64,000 nucleotides of DNA, taken from a virus (Duplodnaviria > Caudoviricetes). A program made the position numbers and the translations under genes. Shown piece by piece: positions 5,128-49,285 of the stretch. Numbering within the stretch: position 1 is the stretch's first letter; each line of letters begins with the position of its first letter. The notes below the pieces were generated by a model. That model ran no database searches and was not told the origin of the DNA. It was given only the letters and a program-made list of their open reading frames with translations. Location of the stretch: positions 1 to 64,000 of IMG/VR virus record IMGVR_UViG_2854418831_000003. One strand, 5' to 3'.

Positions 5128-5136
5128 CTTCCGATT

Positions 5137-5694
5137 TCATGATATCATTTCTAATACAGATTTTACCGTATTTTTCAGATTCAGTCCATCTTTTAATCCC
5201 AGTCGATAGAAAAATTCTTCTGTTTCTGCTCCACTGCTAAAAATTGCATTACAGTATTCCGTAATCACTTCTTCCTGTTCTTGGGATAACGTTTCCAGTA
5301 ATTTCTGGTATTTCTTATCAATCTCACTTACTGGCTCTTTATCCTGCTTTAACTTCCATTCTGAATATGCTTTCCCCATATGCTCTGTAATTGTCAGATT
5401 CACAAATTCCTGCACTTCCTCGGATATGGTGCTCGCAGATTCCTGTTTATCTTTCTTTTTATCATTTGATTTTTCAAGTGTCGTGTCATCAATATAACGA
5501 ATGATTTCTCGAATATTTGACTTCATCGACTGCAGATATCCTTTCATCAGCACAGCTACTTTTCTAGCATCCGATTTTTCGGTTTCTTTTTCCAGCATAT
5601 AAAACTCTTCCAGTTCTTTCAGAATATCCATCCCTGCTTTCATCTGAAATTCCACCTCAAGCAAATCATCCATCACTTTATATAATTCTTCCAT
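5137..5694 (-). CDS. Hypothetical protein
   Basis: 185-aa ORF in operon; C-terminal FFYRLGLKDG motif is common in Clostridiales mobile elements. Confidence 0.55.
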   Translation of the reverse strand: MEELYKVMDDLLEVEFQMKAGMDILKELEEFYMLEKETEKSDARKVAVLMKGYLQSMKSNIREIIRYIDDTTLEKSNDKKKDKQESASTISEEVQEFVNLTITEHMGKAYSEWKLKQDKEPVSEIDKKYQKLLETLSQEQEEVITEYCNAIFSSGAETEEFFYRLGLKDGLNLKNTVKSVLEMIS

Positions 5695-5739
5695 TGTTTA
5701 TTTCTGCCTTTCCATATAGCGCCACTATATTTTCCACAA

Positions 5740-6078
5740 TCATCCAAAAATAAATTCCTGTAATCCACATTTCACAACTTCAATTACTGCAACTATCCCC
5801 ATACCGATATGTGGGAGTAGAACAAACACTACTGTCGTAATAATCGCTGATTTCATTGTCCAGTCCGTACTGATTCCAAACCCAATACTCAAAACTTCTG
5901 TCACAACAGAGATTCCGGCTATCAGATAGCAGAATCCAGCAGATAACCCAACCAGGAACACCAGCACAATATTCACCGCTGCAAGTACCAGCCAAACAGG
6001 AGCTGCAATAATTCGAAATGGCAGTTTTATCATAAATCTCAACATAATTCTTCCTCCTACTTTGTGCCCAGTGGACAC
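5740..6078 (-). CDS. Hypothetical membrane protein
   Basis: Hydrophobic ORF, likely start at MLRFMIK. Confidence 0.5.
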   Translation of the reverse strand: MSTGHKVGGRIMLRFMIKLPFRIIAAPVWLVLAAVNIVLVFLVGLSAGFCYLIAGISVVTEVLSIGFGISTDWTMKSAIITTVVFVLLPHIGMGIVAVIEVVKCGLQEFIFG

Positions 6079-6149
6079 AAGGTTATTTTAGCATATCTGC
6101 CAGATATGACTATCTCTTTTTAAACTTCGTGCCCAGTGGGCACAAAGTT
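6064..6149. repeat. GTGCCCAGTGG(G/A)CAC palindromes, copies 2 and 3
   Basis: GTGCCCAGTGGACAC at 6064-6078; AACTTCGTGCCCAGTGGGCACAAAGTT at 6123-6149, directly after the repA stop. Confidence 0.8.
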
Positions 6150-6150
6150 C

Positions 6151-7245
6151 TTACCTGTCTGGAATATCCTTCCCCCAGTACATGTCATGTCGAACTTCAG
6201 CATCATAAAACTGATTGATTGTTGCAGGAGCGTTATACAATACCGTCAGCATATACTGCCGGATATTCTTCACTTTGCTTGTACTCCTGTCAAGACTGAA
6301 AAACACATACTGGATGTGTTCATACCCGACTTTGAGCAAACGGCTCTTGACCACTTGTGTAGGCACAGCTTCCCCATTGATCTGTTGATATGTCTTTGTC
6401 GAACATATTGCATCCAGCATCAGCTCTACCAGCTCTTCTACTCGTCCAGTTCCATAGCTCTGACAAAGGATCTCATATTCGATATTATCATGAATTAACT
6501 GTCGATACTCATTTCTCTCCTGTATCCTATCTCTCCCTTTCTCTTGTTCAGATAGATATTGATAAGATTCATTCTCACTAAATTCAGTATAATTATATTC
6601 AGTATTATTACAGTTTGTTTTTGAAACTTCTTGAAGTTTGTTTTCTAAACTTCTTGAAGTTTGTTTTTCAAACTCCTTGAAGTTTGTTTTTGAAACTTCT
6701 TGAAGTTTATTTTTCAAACTTCCTGAAGTTTGTTTTTCAAACTTCTGTGTATTTACGGGCTTTTCCGGCTCTTTTTTCGCATATTCTTCTATTTCTGTCT
6801 CTGTATTTTCTTTTCTCTCTGCTACATTTTCCGGTGTTTCTTCCGAATCAAAGATTGCTGGCTCATCTGGATATTCTGTCAGGCTGAAATTTTTCACGTA
6901 AATAACATTTGTTTTTCCAAGTCCGATTCGCCTCTTCTCAATCAATCCAATCCCTTTTTCCTGATCCAGCTCTTTTAGACAATTCACAGCCTTATTCCTG
7001 CCACAGTTAAGCATTTCCATAATCTCTTCCACCGAAAAGAAAATATATGCCCTGTCCTCTTCATCAAACCACCGGTTCTTGATGGACAGTGACATCCGGT
7101 CTAACATCAGTCCGTACAGCACCTTTGCTTCGCAGGAGAGATTTTTAAAATATTCACTTGTAAACAGCAGTTTGGGAATACGATAAAAACTGTACATATC
7201 GCATTCCATTCCTTGAAAATAATGGAATGTTGCTCTTATACTCAT
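6151..7245 (-). CDS. repA: RepA_N family replication initiator
   Basis: FYRIPKLLF..LSCEAKVLYGLMLDRMSLSIKNRWFDEEDRAYIFF..GLGKTNVIYVK; C-terminal KVKNIRQYMLTVLYNA. Confidence 0.85.
   Translation of the reverse strand: MSIRATFHYFQGMECDMYSFYRIPKLLFTSEYFKNLSCEAKVLYGLMLDRMSLSIKNRWFDEEDRAYIFFSVEEIMEMLNCGRNKAVNCLKELDQEKGIGLIEKRRIGLGKTNVIYVKNFSLTEYPDEPAIFDSEETPENVAERKENTETEIEEYAKKEPEKPVNTQKFEKQTSGSLKNKLQEVSKTNFKEFEKQTSRSLENKLQEVSKTNCNNTEYNYTEFSENESYQYLSEQEKGRDRIQERNEYRQLIHDNIEYEILCQSYGTGRVEELVELMLDAICSTKTYQQINGEAVPTQVVKSRLLKVGYEHIQYVFFSLDRSTSKVKNIRQYMLTVLYNAPATINQFYDAEVRHDMYWGKDIPDR
6612..6746. repeat. Six tandem 23-bp iteron-like repeats inside repA
   Basis: AGTTTGTTTTTGAAACTTCTTGA units at 6612, 6635, 6658, 6681, 6704 and 6727. 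Confidence 0.85.
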
Positions 7246-7269
7246 GACACATCCCTCCCTTCGTACTTA

Positions 7270-8136
7270 TCAATGATTCTGATTGCTCCATTCCTCCAAA
7301 AGCTGACATATAACAGTCCGTATCTTCTGTTCATCATACTCTGGAGGAAAATACTTCTTAATTTCATCCTGTTTTAATGTTACCGTTGTTTTCTTTTTAC
7401 GCTCTCCTATAACCAGGAGCCGCACAATCTCTTTTGTCAGCGTTTTTTCTTCTCGATGTTGCCTTATTTTTTTTGCCTGTTCCAGACTTGGATATTTTCC
7501 GGTACTCTCATGCACTTCCTCCACCATCTCCTGTTCTGGAACCGTAAGGTAGGAAAGCTCTACACCTACCTGCAATCCGATCACATCACGATCTACTGCG
7601 TTTAATAGGTCATTCATCAGATAAGTAAGCCGGATATAGCGATACACCTGCCTTGCACTGTCATTTGCGTTCTTTCCAATGTCTTTCGCACTGATACCGC
7701 CTGATGTTCCCTGATGATTCATTGCTTCCATCTTCATACGGTAAGCAAATGCCTTTTCACTTGGGAGTATATTAGGTCTCTGCAGATTGCTGTCTACCAT
7801 CGCACGGACAGCTGTATCTTGATCCATATTTCTGATAATAACCGGAACCTCTTTAAGACCAGCAAGTTGTGCCGCATGTCTCCTTCTGTGACCGGCGATG
7901 ATTTCATATTCACCATCACCCAGCGGTCGTACCAGTAATGCTGTAAGAATTCCCTCTTCTTTCACACTTTCCACCAGTTCCGCCATTGCCTCATCATCAT
8001 TTACTTGAAATGGATGGTTCTCGAAAGAATGTAAATGCTCAAGTGAAACCTGCTGGATATCGTTCGTTTCTTCTCCTCCTCCAAGTAATTCATCATAAGA
8101 TGTCAGTTTTATCTTCGATGCACTTCTACCTTTCAT
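7270..8136 (-). CDS. parB: ParB/Spo0J partition protein
   Basis: LVESVKEEGILTALLVRP..YEIIAGHRRRHA..MVDSNLQR. Confidence 0.9.
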   Translation of the reverse strand: MKGRSASKIKLTSYDELLGGGEETNDIQQVSLEHLHSFENHPFQVNDDEAMAELVESVKEEGILTALLVRPLGDGEYEIIAGHRRRHAAQLAGLKEVPVIIRNMDQDTAVRAMVDSNLQRPNILPSEKAFAYRMKMEAMNHQGTSGGISAKDIGKNANDSARQVYRYIRLTYLMNDLLNAVDRDVIGLQVGVELSYLTVPEQEMVEEVHESTGKYPSLEQAKKIRQHREEKTLTKEIVRLLVIGERKKKTTVTLKQDEIKKYFPPEYDEQKIRTVICQLLEEWSNQNH

Positions 8137-8932
8137 CCAAAAGCACCTCCTGTGTCATCTGCCAATATGCAGCCGCTACTTTTCCTTTTGGATCATGCTC
8201 AAATATGCTGATTCCTTCCGCACTGATTTCAGCTGCTCGTACTGAAAATGGAATACTCTGTGGAAAAATCTTAATCTGGTTTCCATATGTATCAAAAATC
8301 AGATCAGATATATCTCTTGCATAGTTCGTTCGGTTATCCACCATTGTGATCAATATACCTCCAATTTTCAGTTGTTTGTTAAGCTGTCTTCGCACCTTTC
8401 CTATCGTCCGTATCAGCTGTTCTAGACCCTTTACAGGAAGATAAGCCGCCTGGACAGGTATAATAACTGCATCGACACTGGCAAGTGCATTGATCGTCAG
8501 CATTCCAAGTGATGGCATACAGTCAATCAATATATAGTCGTATTCTTCTCTCATTCTTTCTATATATTGTTTTAAGACAAGTTCCCTGCTCATAATATTT
8601 ACAAGTGAAACTTCCATTCCAGAGAGTTCGATGTTTGCCGGAATCAAATCAATTCCTTCCTGGTGATGTAAAATTCCCAGTGTATTTTCAAATAGTTCAT
8701 CTTCTACAATCTTTGTCAGAATAGTAGCCAGTGTGATTGGTAATTCATCTGGGTTATGATACCCAAGACTTGCTGTCATACTTCCCTGCGGATCATTGTC
8801 AATCACAAGCACTTTCTTCCCTGCTTTTGCAAGTCCGACTGCCAGATTCACGCAACTTGTTGTCTTGCCAACCCCGCCTTTTTGTGAACACAATGCCAGC
8901 ACTTTACAATCCTTCATTACTTTCTCTTCCAT
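8126..8932 (-). CDS. parA: ParA/Soj ATPase
   Basis: QKGGVGKTT, IDNDPQG, LIDCMPSLG. Confidence 0.92.
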   Translation of the reverse strand: MEEKVMKDCKVLALCSQKGGVGKTTSCVNLAVGLAKAGKKVLVIDNDPQGSMTASLGYHNPDELPITLATILTKIVEDELFENTLGILHHQEGIDLIPANIELSGMEVSLVNIMSRELVLKQYIERMREEYDYILIDCMPSLGMLTINALASVDAVIIPVQAAYLPVKGLEQLIRTIGKVRRQLNKQLKIGGILITMVDNRTNYARDISDLIFDTYGNQIKIFPQSIPFSVRAAEISAEGISIFEHDPKGKVAAAYWQMTQEVLLDER

Positions 8933-9296
8933 CCTTTTTATCCTCCCATAAATAACTTGAACCTTTCAGCATCCATAATGCTGCTTCCAAAAATGCAAGA
9001 TACCGTTCTGTCATACTATCAAGAACCGGTTCTGAAATAACTGGTTTTTCAGACTTCAAATCTTTTGCCACATCCTCCAAAACCAAACTCATTTCCTTCA
9101 TTTCTGACCGGATAATCTCAATTGTTTCTTTCTTTCCAACAACACATACATGATTGTAAATGCATGATCGGACGATATAATCCTGTTTTTTCATTCCGCT
9201 CACTTTCACTCGTTCTTCAATTGTTGCTTTTTCATAAGAATTCACCCGAAAAGAAATGGTCGTTGTGTTGTGTTTTCCATGTCTGTCACCAGCCAT
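8904..9296 (-). CDS. MobC-like ribbon-helix-helix protein
   Basis: TTISFRVNSYEKATIEERVKVSGMKKQDYIVRS; paralogous to 18122-18478. Confidence 0.55.
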   Translation of the reverse strand: MAGDRHGKHNTTTISFRVNSYEKATIEERVKVSGMKKQDYIVRSCIYNHVCVVGKKETIEIIRSEMKEMSLVLEDVAKDLKSEKPVISEPVLDSMTERYLAFLEAALWMLKGSSYLWEDKKDGRESNEGL

Positions 9297-9299
9297 CGC

Positions 9300-10379
9300 T
9301 TATTCCTCCTCTTCCTCATGTTTCTTATCTAGCAAACCTGCTAATTTACTCTGTGTAGACGGATACAGATGTGAATAAGTGTTCAACGTGGTTTCCACCT
9401 TTTCATGTCCAAGGCGTTCTGCAATCTCCAATGGAGCCACCCCCATATCAACCAGCATACTGGCATGGGAATGGCGGAGATCATGAAGTCGTATCCGCTT
9501 TACACCAGACCGCTCGATTCCGGTAGCCATACAATGTTCCATATGCGATTTGGTAAACCGAAAAAGTCTTTCCTTTTTCATAATTCCATACAAATGACTG
9601 CAATACTCCCTAAATTCCTCTGCAAGAAAATCCGGCATCGTAATCACACGGATACTCTTTGGAGTTTTCGGCTGCGTGATCATATCCTTTCCTTTCAGTC
9701 TCTGATAAGATTTATTGATTGATATGGTTTTCTCTTCAAGATTGATGTCATTATAAGTAAGTGCAAGCAATTCACCGATACGCATTCCGGTCCAGTACAA
9801 CAAAAGAAACGCCATTCTTGTCTCCGGCTTATCACTTACTGTTTCCAGAAAAGCATTGAACTCTTCCTGCATCCAGAAGTCCTTCGGTTCTCCTTTACTC
9901 TTGCCAATCGCTCCTGCCTTCCTGCAGGGATTATCCTGCAGGTTATAATACCGCATTGCATAATTGAAGATTGCAGTCAGCTGGCAGTTCACTGTTTTCA
10001 GATAAGTAGGAGAATATCCTTTTCCATTCTTATCCTTATACGTCAGCAACTCATTCTGCCATGCACGGACGTCTGCCACCGTAATTTCACTGAGAATCTT
10101 CTTTTCAAAATAAGGCTTGATTTTCAGGTCAATAATATATCGCTTCGTGTACATAGTGTTTTCTCTGAGACGGACATCCATATCTTTGTAATAAATCTCC
10201 AGAAAATTTCCAAATTCAATATCCACACCCTGGCTCTGCTGTTGCAGGAAATCTCTTTCCCATTCCTTAGCTTCACCCTTGGTCCTGAATCCTCTTTTCT
10301 GTTTTCTTTTCCGATTTCCCTGCCAGTCTTTGTAATAGACCTGTACTTTCCAGTTTTTTCCTTCTTTGTAAACCCCCAT
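9300..10379 (-). CDS. int: Tyrosine integrase of ICE A
   Basis: Arm-binding N-terminus KRGFRTK; catalytic TGMRIGE, PKT, HDLRHSHAS, LGH, Y. Confidence 0.93.
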   Translation of the reverse strand: MGVYKEGKNWKVQVYYKDWQGNRKRKQKRGFRTKGEAKEWERDFLQQQSQGVDIEFGNFLEIYYKDMDVRLRENTMYTKRYIIDLKIKPYFEKKILSEITVADVRAWQNELLTYKDKNGKGYSPTYLKTVNCQLTAIFNYAMRYYNLQDNPCRKAGAIGKSKGEPKDFWMQEEFNAFLETVSDKPETRMAFLLLYWTGMRIGELLALTYNDINLEEKTISINKSYQRLKGKDMITQPKTPKSIRVITMPDFLAEEFREYCSHLYGIMKKERLFRFTKSHMEHCMATGIERSGVKRIRLHDLRHSHASMLVDMGVAPLEIAERLGHEKVETTLNTYSHLYPSTQSKLAGLLDKKHEEEEE

Positions 10380-10381
10380 TG

Positions 10382-10579
10382 CTAATCCTCGACTTTCATG
10401 CCATAAATCTTTTCTGCCAGGAATTTCGTAGAGATTTTTCCAGCTACTACAATATAGCCTTTTGCCTTCAATTCTTTGTTGTATTCTCGCATCAGACTAT
10501 ATGCATAAGTTTTTGAAACTCCAAGAATTGCACACACATCATCCACATCCATATACATTTTTTCCTGCATCATACTCAT
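10382..10579 (-). CDS. Excisionase-like HTH protein 3
   Basis: MDVDDVCAILGVSKTYAYSLMREYNKELKAKGY. Confidence 0.7.
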   Translation of the reverse strand: MSMMQEKMYMDVDDVCAILGVSKTYAYSLMREYNKELKAKGYIVVAGKISTKFLAEKIYGMKVED

Positions 10580-18121: not shown

Positions 18122-18478
18122 CTATTCCTCCTTCATGCCATCCATCGTGATTGTGATCAGCCGGATCACTTCCAGTAAATCCTCCGACACATTATCACCC
18201 TTTTTCAAACGTTTCAGCTCATTCAGAACCTTTGTAAGCTCATTCTTCAACGCTTTATACACTCTCGGATTTCCTGTCACTACAACCTCTTTTTTCTGCA
18301 ATCTTCGGATAATATAATCCTGTTTGGTCAGACCGGACAATTTAACCGCTGTTTCCAGAAGTTCATCCTCCTCCGGTGATACCCGAAAAGCTACCGTTTT
18401 ATTTCTCCAACGCCCCTGTCTATCCAAACATTTAGCTGACATACGCAAGTCCTCCTTCCCTATCATTTGGTTCTTCAT
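18122..18478 (-). CDS. MobC-like ribbon-helix-helix protein
   Basis: TVAFRVSPEEDELLETAVKLSGLTKQDYII. Confidence 0.6.
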   Translation of the reverse strand: MKNQMIGKEDLRMSAKCLDRQGRWRNKTVAFRVSPEEDELLETAVKLSGLTKQDYIIRRLQKKEVVVTGNPRVYKALKNELTKVLNELKRLKKGDNVSEDLLEVIRLITITMDGMKEE

Positions 18479-19547
18479 TCATGTTTTCTGCATCCAACTG
18501 GTCTGCCATATCCTGCTGTACGGACGGGAACAGATGCGCATATCGGTAAGTGATCTTTTCTGCTGAATGACCAACCCTTTTTCCGATTGCCAGTGCTGTA
18601 TAGCCCATGTTAATCAGCAAAGAGACATGGCTGTGTCTGAGATCATGCACCCGGATTTTTTTCACACCGCTTGCTTTGCATCCTCTTTCCATTTCATGGT
18701 TCAGATAATACTTAGTTACAGGGAAAATACGGTCATCCGGCTGCAGGCTGTAATATAACTTCAAACAATCCTGCATTTCGTCACATAAGAACTTTGGCAT
18801 AGTTACAGTACGGACACTGTTCTTTGTTTTCGGAGTGCTGATCACATCTTCTCCCTTTAAACGCTGATAGGATTTGTTGATCCGCAACGTTCTCTTCTGG
18901 AAATCGAAATCCGCAGGAGTTAAAGCCAAAAGCTCCCCGGATCTGATTCCGCACCAGTACAATAACTGGAACGCATAGTAGGAAAGTGGTTTATCCATCA
19001 TTTCTTCTGAAAACTGTTTATACTCTGCCTTTGTCCAGAAGAGCATTTCCTTGCTTTCTTCTGAGCCGATTGTGCCAGCTTTCCTTGCCGGATTCATGCT
19101 AAGATCATAAAACTTGATCGCATGGTTGAAAATCGTACTCAACTGTCCATGGATTGTTTTCAGATAAGTAGGGGATAAAGGTTTTCCTTTCCTGCTTGTC
19201 AATTTGCGAAGCTCATTATGCCAGTCCAAAACATCCTTTGCGGTGATTTCTGACACCTTTCTTTTTCCCAGATAGGGTAAAATCTTGGACTTGATAATAT
19301 TTTCCTTTGTAAGCCAGGTACTCTTTTTCAGCCTTGGTCTCACATCTTCCTCATATAATTTGCAGAAGCTCTCCAGTTCCATATCCATACTGGCTTTCTT
19401 CTGGAGTATGAACTGCTGCTCCCACTGTGCAGCTTCTCTTTTTGTTGCAAATCCTCTTTTGCATTTCTGCTTACGTTCGCCGGTCCAGTCCTGATACCGT
19501 ACCATAACGTACCATGTGTTATTGCTTTCAGTCTTGTAAATTGCCAT
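18432..19547 (-). CDS. int: Tyrosine integrase of element B
   Basis: KRGFATKREA; CGIRSGE, PKT, HDLRHSHVS, VGH, Y. Confidence 0.93.
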   Translation of the reverse strand: MAIYKTESNNTWYVMVRYQDWTGERKQKCKRGFATKREAAQWEQQFILQKKASMDMELESFCKLYEEDVRPRLKKSTWLTKENIIKSKILPYLGKRKVSEITAKDVLDWHNELRKLTSRKGKPLSPTYLKTIHGQLSTIFNHAIKFYDLSMNPARKAGTIGSEESKEMLFWTKAEYKQFSEEMMDKPLSYYAFQLLYWCGIRSGELLALTPADFDFQKRTLRINKSYQRLKGEDVISTPKTKNSVRTVTMPKFLCDEMQDCLKLYYSLQPDDRIFPVTKYYLNHEMERGCKASGVKKIRVHDLRHSHVSLLINMGYTALAIGKRVGHSAEKITYRYAHLFPSVQQDMADQLDAENMNEEPNDREGGLAYVS

Positions 19548-20914: not shown

Positions 20915-21085
20915 TTATGCCTCCCTTTTTAGAGGGCAATCTTTTCTGCACCCCTCTTCCGGGCATACAGGTCTTGTGCCCAATGCCGCGCAATGGTAAT
21001 GCTCTCCCTTTGAAAAACTCAACATACAAGCGGTGCAATTTATTCCCTTTTCATCAGAAAAACTTAAATTCAAGATAGCTTTCAT
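20915..21085 (-). CDS. Small Cys-rich protein, 56 aa
   Basis: CTAC..HC..C....C..DCPL; ATGA overlap with the ARH stop. Confidence 0.55.
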   Translation of the reverse strand: MKAILNLSFSDEKGINCTACMLSFSKGEHYHCAALGTRPVCPEEGCRKDCPLKREA

Positions 21086-22041
21086 CTCTTTTTCTCCTCG
21101 TGGTTTTTCGCTGCGTCGCCTGTCAGGCTGATCAGCGTGCTCTTTGTGCCGCTGTCCAGTACCATACGCCACCGGAGCGGAATCTTTTCATATCCATACA
21201 GGGCACCGGCCAGTCCGCCGGTAATAGCTGCGATTGTGTCTGCGTCTCCTCCCAGGTTGGCAGCTTTAACAACGGCCGCCTCAAAGTTCTTTGTACTTCT
21301 CAGGCAGTGCAGGGCGCAATGCAAAGAGTCAACCACAAAACCGCTAGGATTCAGGTTTGCCGGCTCTGCTTTTCGGCTGTATCGTGTGCCCCTTGTAATG
21401 CCGTTCAGGCCGTTGCATAGTTTTTGCACCGTATCTGCATGGTGCATGATTAAATAGTATAGCATTTTTGTATAAAGCTGGCAAGCCTCTGCGCTCAGGT
21501 CGTCCCAGTGCGTCAGGCGTCCGATTCTGTCCGCAACCTCTATGGCTCTGCTCTCGTCTGTATAGTACAAGCCTGGGTATACGGTACGCATCAGAGCGCC
21601 ATTGCCTGCGCTTCTGTTCCCGTTCTGCTGCGCTGTCAGCTGTGCTGCCTGCTCCCATAGTTCATATGGTGCCAGGCCCTTGCAATTTTTCAGTTCCGGC
21701 CGTCTCAGCATCATCTGCAGTGCGTTTGTGATCGCGCTGCGGCAGGTGCCGCCTATATCTTTCGGGCCACCCATGGCCCACTCTGCAAAGTGCTTGCCCG
21801 CCCACGGCTCCGGATTATCCGGGTGCATTGCTACGCCCAGGGCTGCTGCGATTGTCATTTGCGTGTCGTCGGTAACTTCTCCCGGCTTTACGTTCAGCCA
21901 TCCGCCGCCGATCATTTCTTTCACGGTTCCGTACTTGTGCTGGATTTCCTTTGCGTTCATAAATTCCAGCGGGGCGCCCAGTGCGTCCCCTACTGCTACA
22001 CCAAATAATGCGCCGCCGATTTTGTTTGCTAAATTCGTCAT
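21082..22041 (-). CDS. ADP-ribosylglycohydrolase (ARH/DraG family)
   Basis: GVAVGDALG, TDDTQM, GNGALMR, GGDADTIAAITG motifs. Confidence 0.92.
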   Translation of the reverse strand: MTNLANKIGGALFGVAVGDALGAPLEFMNAKEIQHKYGTVKEMIGGGWLNVKPGEVTDDTQMTIAAALGVAMHPDNPEPWAGKHFAEWAMGGPKDIGGTCRSAITNALQMMLRRPELKNCKGLAPYELWEQAAQLTAQQNGNRSAGNGALMRTVYPGLYYTDESRAIEVADRIGRLTHWDDLSAEACQLYTKMLYYLIMHHADTVQKLCNGLNGITRGTRYSRKAEPANLNPSGFVVDSLHCALHCLRSTKNFEAAVVKAANLGGDADTIAAITGGLAGALYGYEKIPLRWRMVLDSGTKSTLISLTGDAAKNHEEKKR

Positions 22042-26208: not shown

Positions 26209-26379
26209 TCATTCTTCTATGCCTCTCTGCAGGTCTGCCGCCTGCTGCATCATTGCCAGTTCTTCCTCTTCGATCATACCGTGCTGCAATAACGTGGCCG
26301 CCAGGCGGTCAATAACATTCCTTTGCAGCTGTATAATTTCCGACTGGGTTTCCAGTACCTCAGCAATACACTGTTTCAT
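26209..26379 (-). CDS. Small hypothetical protein, 56 aa (not in ORF track)
   Basis: MKQCIAEVLETQSEIIQLQRNVIDRLAATLLQH...; overlaps the RT stop. Confidence 0.55.
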   Translation of the reverse strand: MKQCIAEVLETQSEIIQLQRNVIDRLAATLLQHGMIEEEELAMMQQAADLQRGIEE

Positions 26380-27517
26380 AGTCAAGTGCTCCTGTTTCTC
26401 CTATTTCCATCACGTTTATGATCTGCTCCTCTCCGTTATCATCCGCATGGGTCAATACAAATTCGTCCAGCAATTTTTCCTTAAATTTCTTACAATCCAC
26501 ATGGCTCAGCATGGCCAGGTAGCTCTGCATGGTTGCGTTTGCTTCTTTGAATGTGATCAGGTTGTCATGGTAGTCCTGGCGCGTTTTCCGGAGCGTTCTC
26601 TTCATCCGAAGTGTTGTGCTCTTTCTCAGGATCACATGGTCGTTATAAATCACATAGCCCACAAACTCGCACCCAACCCGCACCGGCCGGAGTGCTGTCT
26701 TGTTGTTGAAATTTAAGTGCAGCCGCTCCTCTAAAAACTGTGTCATTCTTCTGCCGTATTCTTTCAGGCGTTCCTTGTCATTGTCTAGGATTATAATGTC
26801 GTCCATGTACCGGATATACCGTTTTATTCCCAGTACCCTCTTACAAAACTGGTCAAGTGGATCCAGATACATGTTCCCCAGCATATGGGACAGGCCGCCG
26901 CCGATAGGTATTCCTAAATCATACAGCATTTGCTCCTCGGTAATTGTCAGCTGGTTTGCATCCAGTGGCATACCAAACGGAACCGCATCATTGTTTATGT
27001 AATACCCTAACAAGTCAACGGTTCGCGGATCATCTATCTTTTTCCTGCAAATATCCATAAGTATTTCATGGTCAATGCGGTAAAAGAATTTTGCAACATC
27101 AAACTTGTAATAATACCATTCAGTTCCGGACGTCCTGGTTTCTCGCATCCAGGTATAAAGCTGTTCCATGGCTGCCAGCTGCCCGCGTCCCTTTACGCAC
27201 GCATAGGTATGTTCTATGAACGTCCGGCATATTTTAGGATTCAGCACGTCATATATTGCCCGCTGCACCACTTTGGACCAGTAGTCAATAAATATAACTT
27301 TCCGCACCTTTGGCACGTATACATAAAAGCTGTGATATTCGACTTTTGGTACCTTTCCAGCCCTCAACAGAGTGCTTATTTCTTCCAGGTTTCCCTCTCT
27401 ATTGTCGTAAAATCTCAGCCTCTCCGTGTTCTCCCTTTTGCCCTTTGATACGTGGGTATCTGCGACCATTAGTGTGTGAAATGAGGTTATTTCATAATAT
27501 ACGTTTCTAATTGTCAT
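26360..27517 (-). CDS. DGR reverse transcriptase
   Basis: YKFDVAKFFYRIDH, GIPIGGGLSH, YIRYMDDIII, GCEFVGY; no maturase or endonuclease domain; adjacent to TR and avd. Confidence 0.95.
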   Translation of the reverse strand: MTIRNVYYEITSFHTLMVADTHVSKGKRENTERLRFYDNREGNLEEISTLLRAGKVPKVEYHSFYVYVPKVRKVIFIDYWSKVVQRAIYDVLNPKICRTFIEHTYACVKGRGQLAAMEQLYTWMRETRTSGTEWYYYKFDVAKFFYRIDHEILMDICRKKIDDPRTVDLLGYYINNDAVPFGMPLDANQLTITEEQMLYDLGIPIGGGLSHMLGNMYLDPLDQFCKRVLGIKRYIRYMDDIIILDNDKERLKEYGRRMTQFLEERLHLNFNNKTALRPVRVGCEFVGYVIYNDHVILRKSTTLRMKRTLRKTRQDYHDNLITFKEANATMQSYLAMLSHVDCKKFKEKLLDEFVLTHADDNGEEQIINVMEIGETGALDYETVYC

Positions 27518-27734
27518 ATTTTTTTACAGTGGTGCAGGTTTCGCTGTATTCTACTTCCGGATGGGCCAGCGGCTCCGCTTTCGCAAAACATAACCCACGC
27601 ACAAGGGACTCCCCTTGGTGCCATCACTGCTGTTTTCCTTTTTCGCTCATTGTAAAGCGCGGGGACGAGATCCTTTATCCCCCTGCACTGCCAGGGCGTC
27701 CGTGGGCGCTCCTGTATCTGGCGTATGGGGGTAG

Positions 27735-27853
27735 AGCGGAGCGCCAGCCGATGTTCACGTTCACGTTGCCGCGGTTCGTCCAGTTGCCGTTACTGTAACC
27801 GACACCCGCGTTCGTGCCGTTGCCATAGTTGCCACCGGAGTTGAACAAGCGCT
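27735..27853 (-). ncRNA. DGR template repeat (TR), 119 bp
   Basis: Matches VR 28330-28448 except at 12 positions, all adenines in TR on the minus strand; 10 AAC codons. Confidence 0.97.
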
Positions 27854-27874
27854 ATATCCCATTCCCTACGTTAT

Positions 27875-28246
27875 TTATTTTTTAACGCTCGCCATCCATC
27901 CGCCGAGCATTCTTCCTATCTCATTTACCTTTTCGCTCCATTGCTTATATTTCTTGAAATCTATATATTTCAACCTGTATGAAAGACGAACGTATTTTCT
28001 CAGCTTGTCAATTTCCACATCCAGCTCCTGCAAAGTAGTTTTCTTGTAATACTTTTTATTTGCTTCAATGGTTCTTTCCATTGCCTGGTCCATACATCGC
28101 TTTATGTCTGCCGCTAAAACAAATCTTTCATACTTTGGATACGCATTTAGTACCGGATAGGCGTATAACATCATATCTTCAATTTTTCCTAAAATCAGGA
28201 GGGGATCTCTGTCCCCATCCTGATTTTCAATCTGTACCTCTTCCAT
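27875..28246 (-). CDS. avd: DGR accessory variability determinant
   Basis: 123-aa basic helical protein, YPKYERFVLA..LDVEIDKLR..EIGRMLGGW. Confidence 0.92.
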   Translation of the reverse strand: MEEVQIENQDGDRDPLLILGKIEDMMLYAYPVLNAYPKYERFVLAADIKRCMDQAMERTIEANKKYYKKTTLQELDVEIDKLRKYVRLSYRLKYIDFKKYKQWSEKVNEIGRMLGGWMASVKK

Positions 28247-28262
28247 GTTCCTCCTGCATCTA

Positions 28263-28311
28263 GTTGGCCTTATCGGTCCGCTATCGCGTCCCTATCAGAT
28301 TACAGGCCAAC
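28263..28311 (-). promoter_or_regulatory. Hairpin/cruciform downstream of VR (target-recognition element candidate)
   Basis: Outer GTTGGCCT/AGGCCAAC arms; inner imperfect stem GGGACGC-GATA-GCGGACC. Confidence 0.45.
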
Positions 28312-29400
28312 AGATTCCAGATCCACATAAGCGGAGCGCCAGCCGATGACCACGCTCACGCTGCCGCGGACCGACCAGATGCCGGTACTGTAACCGACAC
28401 CCGCGTCCGCGCCGTTGCCATAGTTGCCACCGGAGTAGAACAAGCGCTCGTCTGCAACGTTATTGAACCACAATCTGTCGTCGTCATAATCAGACGCTTT
28501 TGCTCCGTCTACCGGCAGTAAGCCGTATGCTCTCAGCACTGCCTTTGCAGCGTCGGAAATGTCTGCGGAACAAGTTAAAGCTCCCAGCGCGCAACTAAAG
28601 TTCTCAGAGGTCTTTGTAATGGTTTTACACCACTGGGCGCCGCCAGTTCCTGTTGCGTCAATCTTAATACTGTTCGCGGTTGTTCCGTTTCCATCCGGAG
28701 TAATAAATGCACCGGTGGTTGCGTCAATGGCTTTCCATGCGGTACTTGTCGCTGTCTGCGGGTTGTCGCTGTTGGCGCCGTTATTGTTTTCAAGTAACTG
28801 CAGCTCTCCTTTTACGGTGCGGAGCGCTCCGGTCCACTCAGAAACATTTCCGTTCAGGTCCCAAATTCCATCAGGCTGTTTATTGTGTGACCAGGTCAGC
28901 GGGCCGGTACCGGTTAAAACATGGTAAATTTTTCCTGCATCTGTTCCGCTTCCATAGGTCGCCGGAATAGCCTGCTGCAGCGTCTCTCTGCTGTCCTTGC
29001 CATAGTTATTGTTTCCCCATGGCTGGAAGCCGTTCTTTTTACACCAGAGCATAATTGCGGCCCACTCTGCCTTAGTCATCATGTGCCAGCCTTTTCCCTT
29101 AGATTCACAATATCCTCTGGCAGTGTCCCAGGTAATATTTACAGTCGGATCCTGGCCAGGCAGGGAGTACGCACGGCCATTATTTACAATGTTCTGGTAT
29201 TTACTGATCCAGATTCCCGGTACCTCTTTACCATTCACGATAAAGGCTGGGTGTGTGCTGTCTCCGGCGCCGTCGATCACGTCGCTCATTTTGAACTTAG
29301 GCACGTAAACCATAACGGACGGGATTCCCTTGTCGTCATAAATCAGCTTGTTATTAGGTGCTACCATTTTCAGGGCAAATTCTGCTAAATCGTACTGCAT
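28300..29400 (-). CDS. DGR target protein, CLec/FGE-sulfatase fold (probable receptor-binding protein)
   Basis: ISKYQN, WHMMTKAEW, IWDLNGNVSEW; C-terminal VR ending GWRSA; distal tail module position. Confidence 0.9.
   Translation of the reverse strand: MQYDLAEFALKMVAPNNKLIYDDKGIPSVMVYVPKFKMSDVIDGAGDSTHPAFIVNGKEVPGIWISKYQNIVNNGRAYSLPGQDPTVNITWDTARGYCESKGKGWHMMTKAEWAAIMLWCKKNGFQPWGNNNYGKDSRETLQQAIPATYGSGTDAGKIYHVLTGTGPLTWSHNKQPDGIWDLNGNVSEWTGALRTVKGELQLLENNNGANSDNPQTATSTAWKAIDATTGAFITPDGNGTTANSIKIDATGTGGAQWCKTITKTSENFSCALGALTCSADISDAAKAVLRAYGLLPVDGAKASDYDDDRLWFNNVADERLFYSGGNYGNGADAGVGYSTGIWSVRGSVSVVIGWRSAYVDLESVGL
28330..28448 (-). repeat. DGR variable repeat (VR)
   Basis: Encodes RLFYSGGNYGNGADAGVGYSTGIWSVRGSVSVVIGWRSA versus TR RLFNSGGNYGNGTNAGVGYSNGNWTNRGNVNVNIGWRSA. 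Confidence 0.97.
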
Positions 29401-34639: not shown

Positions 34640-35323
34640 TTACTTGGCCGGTATGGTCAGCTTTTGGCCGGGGTATATCAAGTTCGGATTCTTTATCTTG
34701 TCCCTGTTCAGGTTGTAAATTTCCGTGTATCTGGAGCCTTTACCCAGCAGGCGCTGTGCAATCCTCCATAAACAATCCCCGGATTTTACCGTGTAGGTGG
34801 TCGTCTTTTTGCCTGTTTTGGGCTGCTTCTTTTTAGGCGACGGTCTGGTTGGCGTTTTTATTTTCAGCTCATTGGTGGTGTAAATCTTTATATCTCTGGC
34901 AATAATAAATTTTATGTCATAGAAATAATCTCCGGATCCACCTTTGTACTTGCCTTTAAAACTGGAAACATAAACAGAATAGTTTATGCAGGTGCCAGTG
35001 CATAGCAAAGTACATTTTGTGCCATTGTCCCGATACTTTTCCAGGCTTTTGATCAGTGTGTCGGGTTTGGTATACTTTCTTACCAGTCTGTTTTTCTTCC
35101 GCACTGCCCCTGGAAACATCCCGGACCACGAAATCTCTTTTGTTCCTCGTCCACGGGGGAGTTTTACGTCCCCCAGTGAAATAATGCTGTACGTCATAAA
35201 TTTTGCGTCAGCACCCATTGTTATAGCTTCCGGCAGCATAGGGAACTGTATTCTGCTGCCGCCGGATGGTGTCAGGTAAATATCCATGTCCCTATGCCTC
35301 CTGTATAAGCGGCATGTTTGCAA
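34640..35323 (-). CDS. LysM-containing tail tube initiator (XkdP-like)
   Basis: QFPMLPE N-terminus; C-terminal [27 protein letters not shown]. Confidence 0.85.
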
Positions 35324-38300
35324 AAATTTTGCTCATGCGCTCTGCGATCTCGTCTCCCAGGTCGTCTGCCATTTCGCGGATCCGGTTTTTCATAACTTCA
35401 AAGACCTTTTCCTCGTCCATGTTTCCGCCCTCGATCTTAATAACTGGACTCATGTCCACGTTAATCTCAAAGTTGTTGTTGCCCTGCTGTCCCTGCACTG
35501 CTGCATTGACAGAAACGGCTTTCTTGCCCTCGGATTCCTCTTCGCTACTATCCCCCGACATTTCCTGGCCGGTTACACTCCACACGCTCTTGCTTTCGTC
35601 CTGTGGCTGTGCCTGCAATGGCAAAATGGTATTGCTGGCCAGTTCTTCGCCGCCAGGCCCTACGATTCCGCCGTTTGCGTGGGCTGCAATTTCTCCATTG
35701 CTGTCCAGCACGCCCAGGTCCTCGCCTGCCTGCTGCCACAACGCAATGCCGCGGCCACGTCTGCCCGGTACCGTCGGGATAACATACTCTTTGCCCTCTT
35801 CTCCTAACCAGGATAATTCTGCGCCATGCAGGCCCACCTCTCCACCGTTTGCATGTCCGGCAATGGATACAGAAACTGTTGATCCACTGCTGTGCGTGCT
35901 CAGTGAAGCGCTTGGGTTCGTGATATGGTAGGAAACTGTTACATTTACAGAAGCCCTTGCAGAATAAGGGGAGTTAAAAGCTGCTTGCAGCTCACTACCT
36001 ACTTGGCTGTAAACTGCTGCTATATTGTCGCTGGCTTTCTCGATTGTCACATCCGTGCTGCCATTGGTCTGCATAGTGTTGGAAAATGTATTATCAAGTT
36101 CCGCCTGTGCAGATGTGGCTGCCGGTGTTGCATCCGTGCTGCCTGCTTCTACGGTTAAATTGGTGGTCATTGTGGTGTCTGTGGTGTTTGTTTCACTGCT
36201 CAGAGCTGCCTGCGCTGCCTCTTCCACCGGTGTTGTGTCTGTGGATCCGGCTGTCGTTGTCACGTTTACCTGCTTCTCAACAGTCGTGTCCTCACTTCCG
36301 CTTGCTGTGCTCTGCTCCACTGCTGCCTCAATGCCGCTTGTGTCTACCTGTACCAGATCGGACGGTATAGTTACCGTTGCCCCGGACTGTACCTGTATAC
36401 CGGCACCGCTCAGGGTTCCGGTTTCCATTCCCAGGGCCGCCTCTATCTGTGCCATGGCTGTTTCAGAATCAACCTCAACGTTTGCCAGATCCACCTTTAC
36501 ACCGTCAGCAGTAACAGAAAACTCTGCACCCTCTGCGGTCAATGCGGACATAGCCTGGTCAATGGCTGTTTTGGCTGCGTCTCCGTCAACCTCTGCTGTC
36601 AAGTTATCCATGGAAATTTTCAGCTCGTCGCCTGCATGAATAATATACGGGCTTTCAATGCCGTTTTCTTCGGCTATTGTCTGCCAGTCTATTCCCAGGG
36701 CGTTGCCGATCTCCCATAAGCAATCCCCAGCCTTTACCTTAATGGTTGCGCCCTCTGCGGTCACGTCCTCGGTTTCGGCCAGGTCGCCCAGTTTTTCGTT
36801 TAAACTGGAAACCCATGCGTCTTTGTCAATGTCCACGCCGTCAACTTCCGCTTTCAGATCTCCCAGTTCCACCGGTTCGTCTGTAACAGAAGCCGTTGCA
36901 CGCTTCCAGGCTGCTGAAAATTCCTCACCCAGCTGCCCGTTGGCATCCATCTTACTTACCGCATCAATCAGGGCTTTGTCCCCGGAATCTGCAATGCTTT
37001 TTGCGTATACGTCCCAGGCTGCGCTTGTATCTCCGGAAGCAGCACCGATGGCCATAGTCTCGTTAAACTTGTCCATGATCTGCTTTGGCACATCCTGGCC
37101 AACTTTTACATATTCGTCCACCAGGCCGCGCATGGAGTCTGCATCTGGTTTCATGGCTTCCCACACCTTTTCAAGTGCGTTCTGGTCGCCACTCTGTAAG
37201 AATTTCCAACCGCCGCCCTGCTGTGCGTAATCCGCACCGAACATGTTCAAGTGATCATACAAGCTCTGCATGTCTTGGTTGTTCAGGTAATTCTTTAAAT
37301 AATCAACCTCATTTCCCATGCTTTTCTTTGTCTTTCCCTGGTTTGTTGCGATCAGGTCGCCATAAGTACCGCCCAGGGTGTTGTTTTCAAAGTCCAGGCT
37401 GGTCATGAGATCGTTTGCCTTTTGGTTTCTAATTGCCTGGCTGGCCAGGTCTTTGTAATGCTCATTCTGCCGCTTTGTAATTCGTCCAGAAGCCTCCGCG
37501 GCATTTAAGTATGAATAAAATTCTGTTGCCAGCGCCTGGGTTTCATCTGCTGCGGTTTCTCGCTGATCCGCCAGGGCTTCCACTACCGAAGTAAAGGAGT
37601 CTGCAGTCAGGTCTTTGCCGCTCAGGCTGCCGTATTCCTGGTTGATCCAGTCAAGCTGTGCCTGCGCTTCCGCCTGATTCCATTTGCTGGTTATGCTGTT
37701 CATTTTATCCTGTAAAGCTGCCACTGCCTGCGCTTCGTCAACATCAATAATGCCGTCCTGCAGCGCTTCCTCCACGGCAGTTTTCAGGTCATTGGATAGA
37801 TTGGTCAGTTCCAGGTGGTCTGCTCGCGCCCATTCCTCAATACTGCTCGCCAGGCTTTCACCCTCCTCAGTACCTCCCAGGAATGTCTGCACGCTTATAT
37901 GAGCCGCAAATGTCCGGCTTTCAAGCTCGGAAATTTTGCTTTCCACAAAGGTTGTTACATTGTCCTTATAGGACTGTTGCTCGTCAGCGGTCAGCTCAAT
38001 GCCGACGCTGCTTTTCCATGTCAGTGCCTGGTTTGCTTGCAGTGCTTCCTCTGCTTTCTTTCTCAGTTCGTCGGCGTTCTTAAATTCATTGATCGCCATC
38101 TCAACATTTACCAGGTACTTTGCGTTTAAGATTCCGGAAGCTGCTTCCTCTGCCTGCTTCGCGCTCAGCTCAATACTGCCAAAATGGTTCGCCAGGCTGT
38201 TGCTGATCTGCTTCTCGTTATAGTTATCTATGGCCACACCGATAGCAACCACGGCCGCTGTAATTGCCGCCGCTGCAATGCCAACCTTTCCGGCCATAGG

Positions 38301-38846
38301 AATCATGGATCCCAGGTCGCTCACAAAAGCGCCAACTGTCGGAGCTGTCTGTGCTGCCATCCCTATGTTTTTAATCGCGCTGCCAATAGGGGACAAGGCT
38401 TTCACAATACTGCCCGCTCCGCCGATCAGGGACGTTGCTCCTTTAGCAATCAGTCCAGCACTCAGCCATGAAGTCAGACCGGCCTGTTCGCCGCCCGGCA
38501 TAATCTTTGCAGCTTCTCCAAACAGGCCGCTCAGTCCTTTTGATAACAGGTGTTTGCCCTTACTGCCGGCCCATTTTGTAAATGGCTCTGCGATCAGTGT
38601 GTCCCATGCAATATCAACCTTTCCAAACAGGTCTGCGTTTTGCCATTCCTGGGAGTTGGTCATACCGCTCACGGTTCTCTTGATTCCCTCGGCTTTACCG
38701 TCAACAAAGTCCATCAAATTTGTAAGCGCTGCTGTTGCTGCCGGTGTTGCGTCTGTAATCGCGTCCACAACTCCACGGATGTACGGTGTCAGCCTCTTGC
38801 CAAAACTGTTCTGTACGCCCTCAACAGCGGACTGCATAAGTGTCAT
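35292..38846 (-). CDS. Tape measure protein, C-terminal fragment (contains a LysM domain)
   Basis: Begins with the duplicated MTLMQSAVE; [24 protein letters not shown]; HANGG motifs. Confidence 0.85.
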
Positions 38847-38916
38847 GGAACAAAGCAGATTATTATGATCATTTCATGATTACACTCAACAGCGGACTGC
38901 ATAAGTGTCATGGAAC
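38820..38916. repeat. 32-bp direct repeat / 33-bp insert / 32-bp direct repeat
   Basis: CTCAACAGCGGACTGCATAAGTGTCATGGAAC at 38820-38851 and 38885-38916; insert 38852-38884 is the reverse complement of 2341-2373. Confidence 0.95.
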
Positions 38917-40612
38917 CCTCTAGGTTATCCAGCATAGTGTCTGACATGTCCTGCGCTGCTCCGTCCGCATTATAAATTGCGTCGCTCAGCTTGTTATAAT
39001 CTTCCTTAGAAGCATTGATAATAGCCAACATTCCAGCCATTGCTTCCTTGCCGAAAATGGTGCTGGCCGCTGCTGTCTGTTCAGTCTCAGAAAGTCCTCC
39101 CAGGCTGCCGCGCAAGTTATCCATGACACCTTTCAGTGTTTTCATGTTTCCGGAGCTGTCGGTCAAGCTGATTCCGTACTTCTCCATAGCTGTTGCCATG
39201 CTGTCAGTAGGTGCTGCCATATTCGCCAGGGAAGTCTTTAAGGCTGTACCGGCCATGCTTCCCTTGATGGAACTATTGGCCATAAGCCCCAGTGCCATGG
39301 ATGTATCTTCAACGCTGTACTTCATTGCTCCCGCCACTGGCGCAACGTATTTGAATGATTCTCCCAACATACCAACGTTTGTGTTTGCGCTGGCGCTGGC
39401 TTTTGCCAGTACATCCGCAAAATGTCCGGAATCGCTTGCCTTTAGGCCGAATGCCGTGAGCGCGTCGGTTACAATATCGGAAGTGGATCCCAGGCTCTCG
39501 CCGCTGGCTGCTGCCAGGTTCATAATACCGGAAATACCGGAGATCATCTGTTTCGGCTGCCAGCCCGCCATTGCCATGTAATTAAATGCCTCAGCTGCCT
39601 CTGTCGCTGTAAACTTGGTCGTTGCTCCCATTTCCTGGGCTTTTGCTGTCAGGTCCTCAAACGCCTGCCCTGTTGCTCCGGAAATAGCCCCGACCTGGCT
39701 CATCATGCTTTCAAAGTTTTTGTAAGTGTTTACCGTATCGCCCAGACCTACACTGATACCTAGTGCCGCGCCTGCCTGTGTCAGCGGGTTCTTTGCAGCG
39801 TTTATTATTGCCGTCAGAGGTGCTGTGGCTGCATCCACGACGCTCACTGTTGCCGTCCAGACGCTGCCGTCCCAGGCTGCTGCCTTATCCCGCACACTAT
39901 CAATAACCGGGCTTGCGTTGTCGTCTGCTCCCAGCTGCGCGGATCCGGAACTTCCGGAAAAATTCTCAACAGCGTCCTCTGCTGCTCTTACGATCGGGGT
40001 GGCGTTATCATCCGCCCCCAGCTCCGCTGTGGCGCTCATGCCGTCCAGCATTTCCGTGGCGTCCTCCGTCGCTCGTATTGCCTGGGTGGCGTTGTCGTCT
40101 GCTGTTAGCTCTACGGTTGCCACATCCCCATCCAGGGACGCCAGCGCGTCGCCCGCGTCCCTTATCTCCATGGTGGCGCTATCATCCGCGCTTAACCCCA
40201 CAACCGCCTCATTGCCATTCAAGGCGGTCAGTGAGTCGCCCACGTCGTCAATAATTCCGGTTGCGTTATTGTCTGCTCCCACTTCAACATCCGAGGAGGT
40301 GCCGTCCAGGGTTGCTGCCTGGTCCGCTACGTCGCTCAGGGTTCCTGTGGCTGCGTTGTTCACGTCTACGTCAACGCTTGGGCTTACGCCGTCCAGGGAT
40401 TCCGCCTGATCAGATACCCGGCTCAGTCCCTGGCTTGCGTTGTCGTCCAGCTCAATATCAATATTGTGCGCTCTTTCCAACCGATCAAGGCGGCGCTGTG
40501 TGCGGTCCCACGCACGTTCAAACGCCGTCAGGTTTCTTGTGGCCGACTGCACACCAGCACCGGTGCGGTCAACCGCTTCTATCGGAATTTCAATAGTTAA
40601 TGTTTCGGCCAC
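38843..40612 (-). CDS. Tape measure protein, N-terminal fragment
   Basis: PhageMin_Tail core (FESMMSQVGAISGAT..GATTKFTATEAAEA..MLDNLEGS) and about 29-aa ADDNA repeats; aberrant tail [13 protein letters not shown]. Confidence 0.9.
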   Translation of the reverse strand: MAETLTIEIPIEAVDRTGAGVQSATRNLTAFERAWDRTQRRLDRLERAHNIDIELDDNASQGLSRVSDQAESLDGVSPSVDVDVNNAATGTLSDVADQAATLDGTSSDVEVGADNNATGIIDDVGDSLTALNGNEAVVGLSADDSATMEIRDAGDALASLDGDVATVELTADDNATQAIRATEDATEMLDGMSATAELGADDNATPIVRAAEDAVENFSGSSGSAQLGADDNASPVIDSVRDKAAAWDGSVWTATVSVVDAATAPLTAIINAAKNPLTQAGAALGISVGLGDTVNTYKNFESMMSQVGAISGATGQAFEDLTAKAQEMGATTKFTATEAAEAFNYMAMAGWQPKQMISGISGIMNLAAASGESLGSTSDIVTDALTAFGLKASDSGHFADVLAKASASANTNVGMLGESFKYVAPVAGAMKYSVEDTSMALGLMANSSIKGSMAGTALKTSLANMAAPTDSMATAMEKYGISLTDSSGNMKTLKGVMDNLRGSLGGLSETEQTAAASTIFGKEAMAGMLAIINASKEDYNKLSDAIYNADGAAQDMSDTMLDNLEGSMTLMQSAVECNHEMIIIICFVP

Positions 40613-47986: not shown

Positions 47987-49285
47987 TTATCGTCTTGTTG
48001 CCTCGTACTCATGTACAAGGTCAGGGTTCTGTACACATGCAGCGTCAATGGATTCTGCATAGCTCAGGGCGGCGTTGCTCTTGCGGATTTCTTCCGCTTT
48101 CTTTTCGATCTGGCTCCATGCGTCAGTGCCTCCTGTGGCTCCTACGCCTCTTTTGCCAACTTCTCCGAAAAGTCCAGATTTTTCTACCGCTGCCACTGCT
48201 CCGTCAAGTACGCCGATCATGTCGTCGTATGCAGTGCCGCCTGCTGCCTGCAGTGCCTTTAATGTCGGGACCAGTTCTTCCGGTTTCTTGCCGATGATCT
48301 CGTACTTCTTCGCAACGTTGTAAAGTTTTTCCTCCTGCGCTGCGTCTGCCTGCTTTCTCAGTGCGATCAGTTCAGCTGCCACTAACGGGTGCAGGCCCTT
48401 GTAAATATCTTCGCCTGCTGCCTGCTGTCCTGTTGCTCCCTGTGCGCCCTCAGCGGCCGCTCCTGGGGTTTCTACTACTCCGGTGCCCGCTGCCTTGCCT
48501 ACGCCCTCCGGCGCTGCTCCTGCGCCTGCTCCTGCGCCCTCAGCTCCATCCTCAACACCATAGCGCTTTTTAAGTTCTTCAAACGCCATGCGGTCTGTTG
48601 CTGTCATGTTTGCCTCGTTGAATTTCATGTCAGTTTCTCCTCCTATAAATTTCTTTGTTTTGGTTTTTCCGTTATCTTCCGGCGGTGTCTCCCCGCCCTC
48701 CTGTTCAGGATCCTCTGTTTCCGGCGGCTGCGGTTTGCCTGTCGCCTTTTCAATCATCCCTCCCAGGCGGTCAACGGTTTCCTGCATGTGCTCTACGCTC
48801 ACGGCACCAGCTGTTTTTACAATCTGTGCCGTTTTACCTGCGCCCCAGGAAGTAACCAGGCCCTTGATGGCCACGTCAAACTCGTCAATGCTCTGGTTCA
48901 TCAGTGCGGCCTTGTCCGTTACTTCTTCGTCCCGGATAATGCTGCACAAGCTGTTTTCCAGTGCAAAACACACATCCCAAATTTCATCAGTAATGCGGCG
49001 GAGCTTGCGTTCTTCCATCTTGTCATTGAATGTATCTGCTTTTTCAATGTCGGCCACTGCGCTGTCAATGTCTGCCTGGTCCAGCTTCAACGCCTTGCCA
49101 ATGGCAGAAAAGAACTTGTGCAGGCCGCTTTTTGCTGGTGCCTGTTCCGGATTCTGGCCCGTCGGCTGTTCTTCCGGTTTCCCGCCGTTTCTCTTATACA
49201 GGGCAACGTGCGCGTGCTGGTTTGCGCCAGCATCCACCAGGCTAACCTCTGTTACTTCCAGGTCTTTCAGCTTTGTCTTTGCCAC
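47987..49285 (-). CDS. Scaffold/prohead protease-associated protein
   Basis: LEVTEVSLVDAGANQHA N-terminus; helical, low-complexity body. Confidence 0.65.
   Translation of the reverse strand: MAKTKLKDLEVTEVSLVDAGANQHAHVALYKRNGGKPEEQPTGQNPEQAPAKSGLHKFFSAIGKALKLDQADIDSAVADIEKADTFNDKMEERKLRRITDEIWDVCFALENSLCSIIRDEEVTDKAALMNQSIDEFDVAIKGLVTSWGAGKTAQIVKTAGAVSVEHMQETVDRLGGMIEKATGKPQPPETEDPEQEGGETPPEDNGKTKTKKFIGGETDMKFNEANMTATDRMAFEELKKRYGVEDGAEGAGAGAGAAPEGVGKAAGTGVVETPGAAAEGAQGATGQQAAGEDIYKGLHPLVAAELIALRKQADAAQEEKLYNVAKKYEIIGKKPEELVPTLKALQAAGGTAYDDMIGVLDGAVAAVEKSGLFGEVGKRGVGATGGTDAWSQIEKKAEEIRKSNAALSYAESIDAACVQNPDLVHEYEATRR

Follow-up and report, generated by a model that had tools for sequence, protein, structure and literature searches.

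In a Blautia isolate, a contractile-tailed prophage has its tape measure gene split by a precise insertion of 65 bp, in which a 32-bp piece of the gene is duplicated on the two sides of a 33-bp fragment of an ICE antirepressor gene. We directly established the structure of this scar, the donor of the fragment, the intact ancestral state of the gene and the fit of the two lengths to the dimensions of type I-C CRISPR systems of Blautia. The best mechanistic fit, which we put forward tentatively, is off-target integration by a Cas1-Cas2 of type I-C geometry; we infer both which enzyme was at work and its presence, now or formerly, in the host. The window (the whole stretch of 64,000 nucleotides that was analyzed) comes from an IMG/VR provirus of the Blautia isolate draft genome GCA_003324155.1. 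Positions given below are those of the window, which is the first part of the 79,957-bp IMG/VR record; adding 47 converts them to coordinates of the NCBI contig PSQG01000006.1. No paper naming the accession was found in the literature.

Structure of the insertion

The scar and the two gene fragments around it are as follows.

35292-38846, minus strand: tape measure C-terminal fragment, 1184 aa, clustering with intact 1751-aa proteins
38820-38851, unstranded: duplicated tape measure target, copy 1, an exact duplicate of 38885-38916 and single-copy in relatives
38852-38884, plus strand: 33-bp insert, which reads as the sense strand of the antirepressor gene in the ICE; none of the nine related tape measure genes contains it
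38885-38916, unstranded: duplicated tape measure target, copy 2, an exact duplicate of 38820-38851
38843-40612, minus strand: tape measure N-terminal fragment, 589 aa (PF10145 PhageMin_Tail, 1e-58)

On the plus strand, the 32-mer CTCAACAGCGGACTGCATAAGTGTCATGGAAC was found at 38820-38851 and again, without a mismatch, at 38885-38916, and these are its only two copies in the 79,957-bp record. Read as their reverse complement, the intervening 33 bp (38852-38884) match 2341-2373 at every position; that stretch lies 36.5 kb away and in inverted orientation, and the record holds no copy of this 33-mer other than the scar insert and the donor. We calculate that 160 kb of sequence, both strands counted, would hold such an exact 33-mer match by chance approximately 2e-15 times. 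The match between donor and insert ends abruptly, with different neighboring bases on either side, and zero bases are shared at either scar junction; this absence of microhomology is expected of transesterification, not of template switching. No mutation was detected within the 97 bp of the two copies and the insert, and from this letter-perfect state the insertion appears to be recent.

The gene that was struck is encoded on the minus strand. The reading frame of the N-terminal fragment crosses copy 2, takes 11 codons from the insert and then ends with V-P-stop in copy 1, and its TGA overlaps the ATG of the C-terminal fragment in an ATGA at 38843-38846. When 65 bp were removed from the gene (35292-40612), a single open frame of 1751 aa was obtained. 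A sequence-only reading of this DNA had proposed the 32-bp target duplication, the inverted 33-bp insert from the ICE 36.5 kb away, the junctions without microhomology and the restoration of the frame by removal of 65 bp, and all four were reproduced here. The scar splits an essential tail gene, and the prophage probably cannot build tails.

The protein cluster that includes the C-terminal fragment has 1964 members; among the 14 full-length ones that were listed, 12 have 1751 aa, which is the usual length for this tape measure family here. No intact protein identical to the 1751-aa read-through was present among the listed cluster members, the best one matching at 1742 of 1751 positions. The site was single-copy in two IMG/VR contigs and seven metagenome contigs that are 95-98% identical to the window. 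The alignments of these nine relatives all end at 38851 or begin at 38885, and no other indel was observed near the scar in up to 4.9 kb on each side. As the nine relatives are uninterrupted and their alignments break exactly at 38851/38885, the window represents a precise 65-bp insertion into a clean, typical gene, and the ancestral state is an uninterrupted tape measure gene with a single 32-mer. The precision of the insertion relative to these relatives argues for Cas1-Cas2 activity.

We also scanned the 80-kb record for further repeat-spacer-repeat units of the same shape, a check that the sequence-only reading had called for, and found no second one, a result that counts against Cas1-Cas2. 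Of the other short direct repeats in the record, the best were iteron-like ones in repA and a 24-bp repeat that lies in frame in a gene for an ATPase. The earlier observation that the window is devoid of cas genes could be extended, as neither cas1 nor any other cas gene was found in the entire 79,957-bp record.

The donor element and the insertion site of the prophage

The insert has its source in DNA of the same contig, with 33 of 33 positions matching an ICE antirepressor gene. The donor features are the following.

2089-2865, minus strand: ICE antirepressor gene, Bro-N and ANT/KilAC (Pfam PF02498, 1e-17; PF03374, 9e-19)
2335-2340, plus strand: donor flank TTCTCC, directly 5' of the protospacer, with TCC adjacent and TTC 3 nt further out
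2341-2373, minus strand: donor (protospacer) within the ICE antirepressor gene; apart from the scar, the record has the 33-mer nowhere else

The ICE-like element carries genes for a T4SS coupling protein, DUF3801, RepA_N, ParB and a tyrosine integrase. In three other Blautia species and in one IMG/VR contig, this ICE gene likewise contains the 33-mer, with unchanged flanks. The ICE sequence surrounding the donor matches the IMG/VR contig (433 bp aligned) and the three Blautia species (153 bp compared) at 100% identity, and this identity across species suggests that the donor ICE moved recently. A recently moving mobile element in the same cell is a donor consistent with spacer acquisition. In the 132 Blautia genomes, no native CRISPR spacer carrying the 33-mer was found, and its only occurrences were copies of the ICE gene.

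The ICE (window 1-10400; L003, L144-L146, L149-L158) is very widespread in gut Firmicutes and has been moving recently. Its TrbL_2 protein was found in 20,582 blocks of the assembly collection, and its copies are often interrupted by group II intron RT genes. In the RepA_N gene (window 6600-6750), dense direct repeats of 16-28 bp with periods of 23, 46 and 69 are probably the iterons of an internal origin.

The integrase gene of the prophage abuts guaA, and the GuaA protein is 95% identical to Blautia proteins. Based on the DNA flanking guaA, the closest of 132 Blautia species genomes were G132 (99%), G016 and G079 (98% each), G028 (97%) and G031 (96%). The 3' end of guaA is occupied by a tandem stack composed of the ICE, a Mob_Pre mobilisable element and the prophage, and three related tyrosine integrases mark the elements of the stack (window 9300-10379 and 18432-19547; L011:4945-6060). 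Mobile elements are also found at the guaA site in G016 and in other contigs. Two considerations make this lysogen lineage the likely place of origin of the insertion: a phage whose tape measure gene is broken should not spread, and the ICE, the mobilisable element and the prophage lie side by side at guaA.

Type I-C geometry in Blautia

The type I-C marker Csd1 was detected in 37 of the 132 Blautia species. We derived repeat consensuses for 12 Blautia I-C arrays, all from genomes other than the host; nine of them are 32 nt long (GTCGYTCCC...GTGGATTGAAAT or GTCAGCC...GAGTTGAAAT), and the remaining three are 28, 31 and 33 nt by a crude consensus derivation. The 211 spacers of Blautia I-C systems are mainly in the range of 33-36 nt, with 57 of 33 nt, 81 of 34 nt, 44 of 35 nt and 18 of 36 nt and few of other lengths, such that 33 nt is the second commonest length (27%). 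Judged by the repeat and spacer lengths of these 12 arrays, 32/33 is ordinary Blautia I-C geometry. The statement of the sequence-only reading that these dimensions are typical of type I-C holds in this genus, and the agreement of the duplication with the repeat length and of the insert with a common spacer length supports the involvement of a I-C integrase.

One I-C spacer, in array L131 of G091, matches the head-gene region of this prophage (48369-48402) at 33 of 34 positions, with TTT as the 5' flank. This match suggests that Blautia I-C systems encounter this phage family, and it adds, together with the occurrence of I-C in the genus, to the case for Cas1-Cas2. The flank at 48369-48402, being TTT and not TTC, could be a PAM escape change.

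Against these observations, type I-C was not found in any of the five closest genomes (96-99% identical at guaA), two of which are small and probably incomplete. Cas1 was present in one of the five, in a type I-B locus with the order cas6-cas8b-cas7-cas5-cas3-cas4-cas1-cas2, and the I-B array of this relative has 30-nt repeats and 34-39-nt spacers, which do not fit the scar. A re-partition of the scar according to type I-B (30 + 35) was rejected, as the match to the ICE covers exactly 33 bp and the bases that this partition adds differ from the donor flanks. A homologue search with a Blautia I-C Cas1 gave NCBI-derived hits, and the two that were traced by exact match came from samples other than GCA_003324155.1.

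In several Blautia species, a I-C cas operon with its array is located immediately downstream of guaA: G005 (L130, G005:C21:575-12854), G077 (L132, G077:C14), G073 and G047. This is the position at which the host of the scar has its stack of mobile elements. If the host had the same layout as G005 or G077, its cas locus would be just past the contig break in the ICE.

PAM and target site

The canonical TTC does not adjoin the donor on either strand. The 5' flank of the donor is TTCTCC if the minus strand corresponds to array sense, and CCA in the other orientation. In Legionella, approximately 90% of type I-C acquisitions used TTC, 2-4% used TTT and 6-8% were slips or flips (Rao et al. 2017, bioRxiv 10.1101/137067). 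The same study attributed TCN flanks to +1 slips and noted that plus-slips favour spacers of 33 nt or shorter. For I-C interference in B. halodurans, TTC, CTC, TCC and TTT were reported to be functional, TCC being a weak PAM (bioRxiv 10.1101/137067). Cas4 is highly PAM-specific, and its loss leads to non-PAM spacers (Lee et al. 2019, PMC6519985). With TCC adjacent, and considering these published PAM and slip data, the donor flank fits only a rare class of I-C acquisition. The functional TCC and the preference of plus-slips for short spacers favor a Cas1-Cas2 origin, whereas the absence of an adjacent TTC, given its predominance in Legionella and the specificity of Cas4, argues against it.

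When the target 32-mer was compared with eight Blautia I-C repeats, 11-14 of 32 positions were identical on the plus strand (top 1.5-15% of the 32-mers in the record) and 6-10 of 32 on the minus strand. As eight repeats were tried on two strands, this likeness is not significant. The predicted fold energy of the target was -2.4 or -3.9 kcal/mol versus -10.6 to -13.3 kcal/mol for the I-C repeats, and the hairpin is missing. The target shows no significant resemblance to a I-C repeat, which is a further point against Cas1-Cas2. The attribution to Cas1-Cas2 in the sequence-only reading is partly supported, by the I-C geometry, and it is weakened by the donor flank, by the target site and by the CRISPR content of the five closest genomes.

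Proposed mechanism

We propose that a Cas1-Cas2 of type I-C geometry in the lysogen may have captured a 33-bp piece of the resident ICE, and that this fragment would have gone into the tape measure gene of the prophage instead of the leader-repeat junction of a CRISPR array. The 32-bp target would have been duplicated by two transesterifications with a stagger of 32 bp and by the subsequent repair of the gaps. The product would be a repeat-spacer-repeat unit that is non-functional as CRISPR and splits the gene into the fragments of 589 and 1184 aa. To our knowledge, no process other than staggered integration with subsequent repair accounts for a blunt-junction, repeat-length duplication around a spacer-length piece of resident mobile DNA. 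That Cas1-Cas2 can integrate off target in E. coli, as the sequence-only reading had stated, agrees with the literature, at least in the passages of PMC7054753 and bioRxiv 10.1101/148544 in which the work is cited (Nivala 2018).

Alternative explanations

It is possible, although unlikely, that the 65 bases do not exist in cells and were created during assembly or finishing, by concatenation of contig ends that overlapped by 32 bases and were left unmerged, with a 33-base fragment placed between them. The exact product of the N-terminal fragment was found only on NCBI contig PSQG01000006.1 (179,824 bp) of GCA_003324155.1, each split product is on record from one contig only, and the scar junction pattern was not found in the scanned species genomes or metagenome contigs. 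In addition, 32 and 33 correspond to k-1 and k for k = 33, which by our own reasoning may reflect the overlap and the minimal node size of some de Bruijn assemblers. However, the junctions share no base, so that the join cannot be a walk through a de Bruijn graph; a blind concatenation would be needed, yet the sequence contains no Ns. Moreover, the donor is too distant to be linked by paired ends and lies in an unbroken stretch of the assembly, and the surrounding kilobases are free of other indels relative to the relatives. We retain this explanation because a single draft assembly is the sole witness of the allele, which also weakens the case for Cas1-Cas2.

Similarly doubtful, in our view, is a real insertion made without Cas1-Cas2, either by a staggered double-strand break whose 32-nt overhangs were filled in and whose ends were then joined around a stray 33-bp ICE fragment or by an unknown integrase with a 32-bp stagger. 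This explanation would be compatible with the presence of Cas1 in only one of the five closest genomes and with a donor that has no canonical PAM, and blunt junctions also suit end joining. It requires, however, that the values of 32 and 33 both fall by coincidence inside the narrow window of Blautia I-C systems, and we know of no bacterial process that yields a 32-bp target duplication together with a 33-bp filler. It keeps its standing since Cas1-Cas2 in the host is itself deduced. The five closest relatives suggest that the host may lack a matching Cas1-Cas2; if the insertion is real and the host indeed has no Cas1-Cas2 of 32/33 geometry, a Cas-independent process that makes CRISPR-sized scars would have to be considered, an outcome that we regard as rather improbable.

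The strand of the insert, which is the sense strand of the antirepressor gene, and the DGR-type RT encoded at 26360-27517 are both compatible with an RT-templated insertion of antirepressor mRNA, by the RT of the prophage DGR or by an intron RT, or with double template switching. Such an origin is very unlikely: neither junction has microhomology and, with all 33 positions identical, the insert shows no adenine mutagenesis. A duplication of 32 bp of target is not known to us from DGR retrohoming or from template switching. The RVT_1 reverse transcriptase gene lies beside a gene for an FGE-sulfatase fold (window 26360-29400), which is the usual DGR layout in a tail-fibre region.

Finally, the unit could in principle be a working mini-CRISPR array that is carried by the phage and directed, with Cas proteins of the host, against the ICE. 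This is scarcely credible in spite of the repeat-spacer-repeat layout and the perfect match of the spacer to a competing mobile element, as the 'repeat' is ordinary coding sequence that occurs once in relatives, has neither the I-C-like hairpin nor the 3' handle, lies within a coding gene of a record that contains no cas gene, and forms part of a unit that destroys an essential phage gene.

Relation to known systems and implications

If off-target integration by Cas1-Cas2 is accepted, this kind of event has already been published, and the present instance stands out by its identified donor, documented ancestral state and essential-gene target. The neo-CRISPR units of Nivala, Shipman and Church 2018 (Nat Microbiol), as far as they are described in the citing sources, have in common with the scar a spacer-sized insert, a repeat-length duplication and blunt junctions. 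According to the same passages (PMC7054753, bioRxiv 10.1101/148544), those cases arose in E. coli overproducing type I-E Cas1-Cas2, and the natural cases were circumstantial and came from two species. The scar differs in its I-C geometry, in having its donor in the same genome, in the essential prophage gene that was struck and in that the enzyme is deduced. Canonical I-C acquisition (PMC6519985; bioRxiv 10.1101/137067) likewise duplicates a 32-nt repeat and draws on mobile-element donors, with spacers of 33-37 nt. However, it takes place at the leader-repeat junction of an array with a TTC PAM in about 90% of cases, whereas the scar is in hairpin-less coding DNA and its donor is flanked by TCC.

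Staggered integration followed by repair is also common to the scar and to the target-site duplications of casposons and transposons. The latter are 2-15 bp long and lie on either side of a complete element that has terminal inverted repeats, whereas the scar encloses a 33-bp fragment. Virus-borne mini-CRISPR arrays are similar in that a repeat-spacer-repeat unit on one mobile element carries a spacer against another, but their repeats match the CRISPR repeat of the host and are processed, whereas the repeat of the scar consists of duplicated tape measure sequence.

If the insertion is real and was made by Cas1-Cas2, it would be a clean natural case, with donor and target in one genome and the ancestry known from nine relatives, in which an essential tail gene of a prophage was disabled by the mutagenic action of the adaptation machinery. 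It would also indicate that off-target spacer integration occurs in gut commensals at native expression and that it can help lock prophages in place. In a host without the enzyme, the scar would suggest that insertion took place by some as yet unknown process. The scar also provides a defined target sequence for testing which sites outside arrays type I-C integrases accept.

Other features of the record

The accessory region of the prophage encodes an ADP-ribosylglycohydrolase (window 21082-22041; PF03747, 1e-63). The 24-bp direct repeat mentioned above is exact and in frame, with its copies 66 bp apart, in the gene for a 651-aa AAA_23 ATPase (G000 75463-75552; L005:11463-11552). Since an identical protein is encoded in many other contigs, this repeat appears to be native to the gene.
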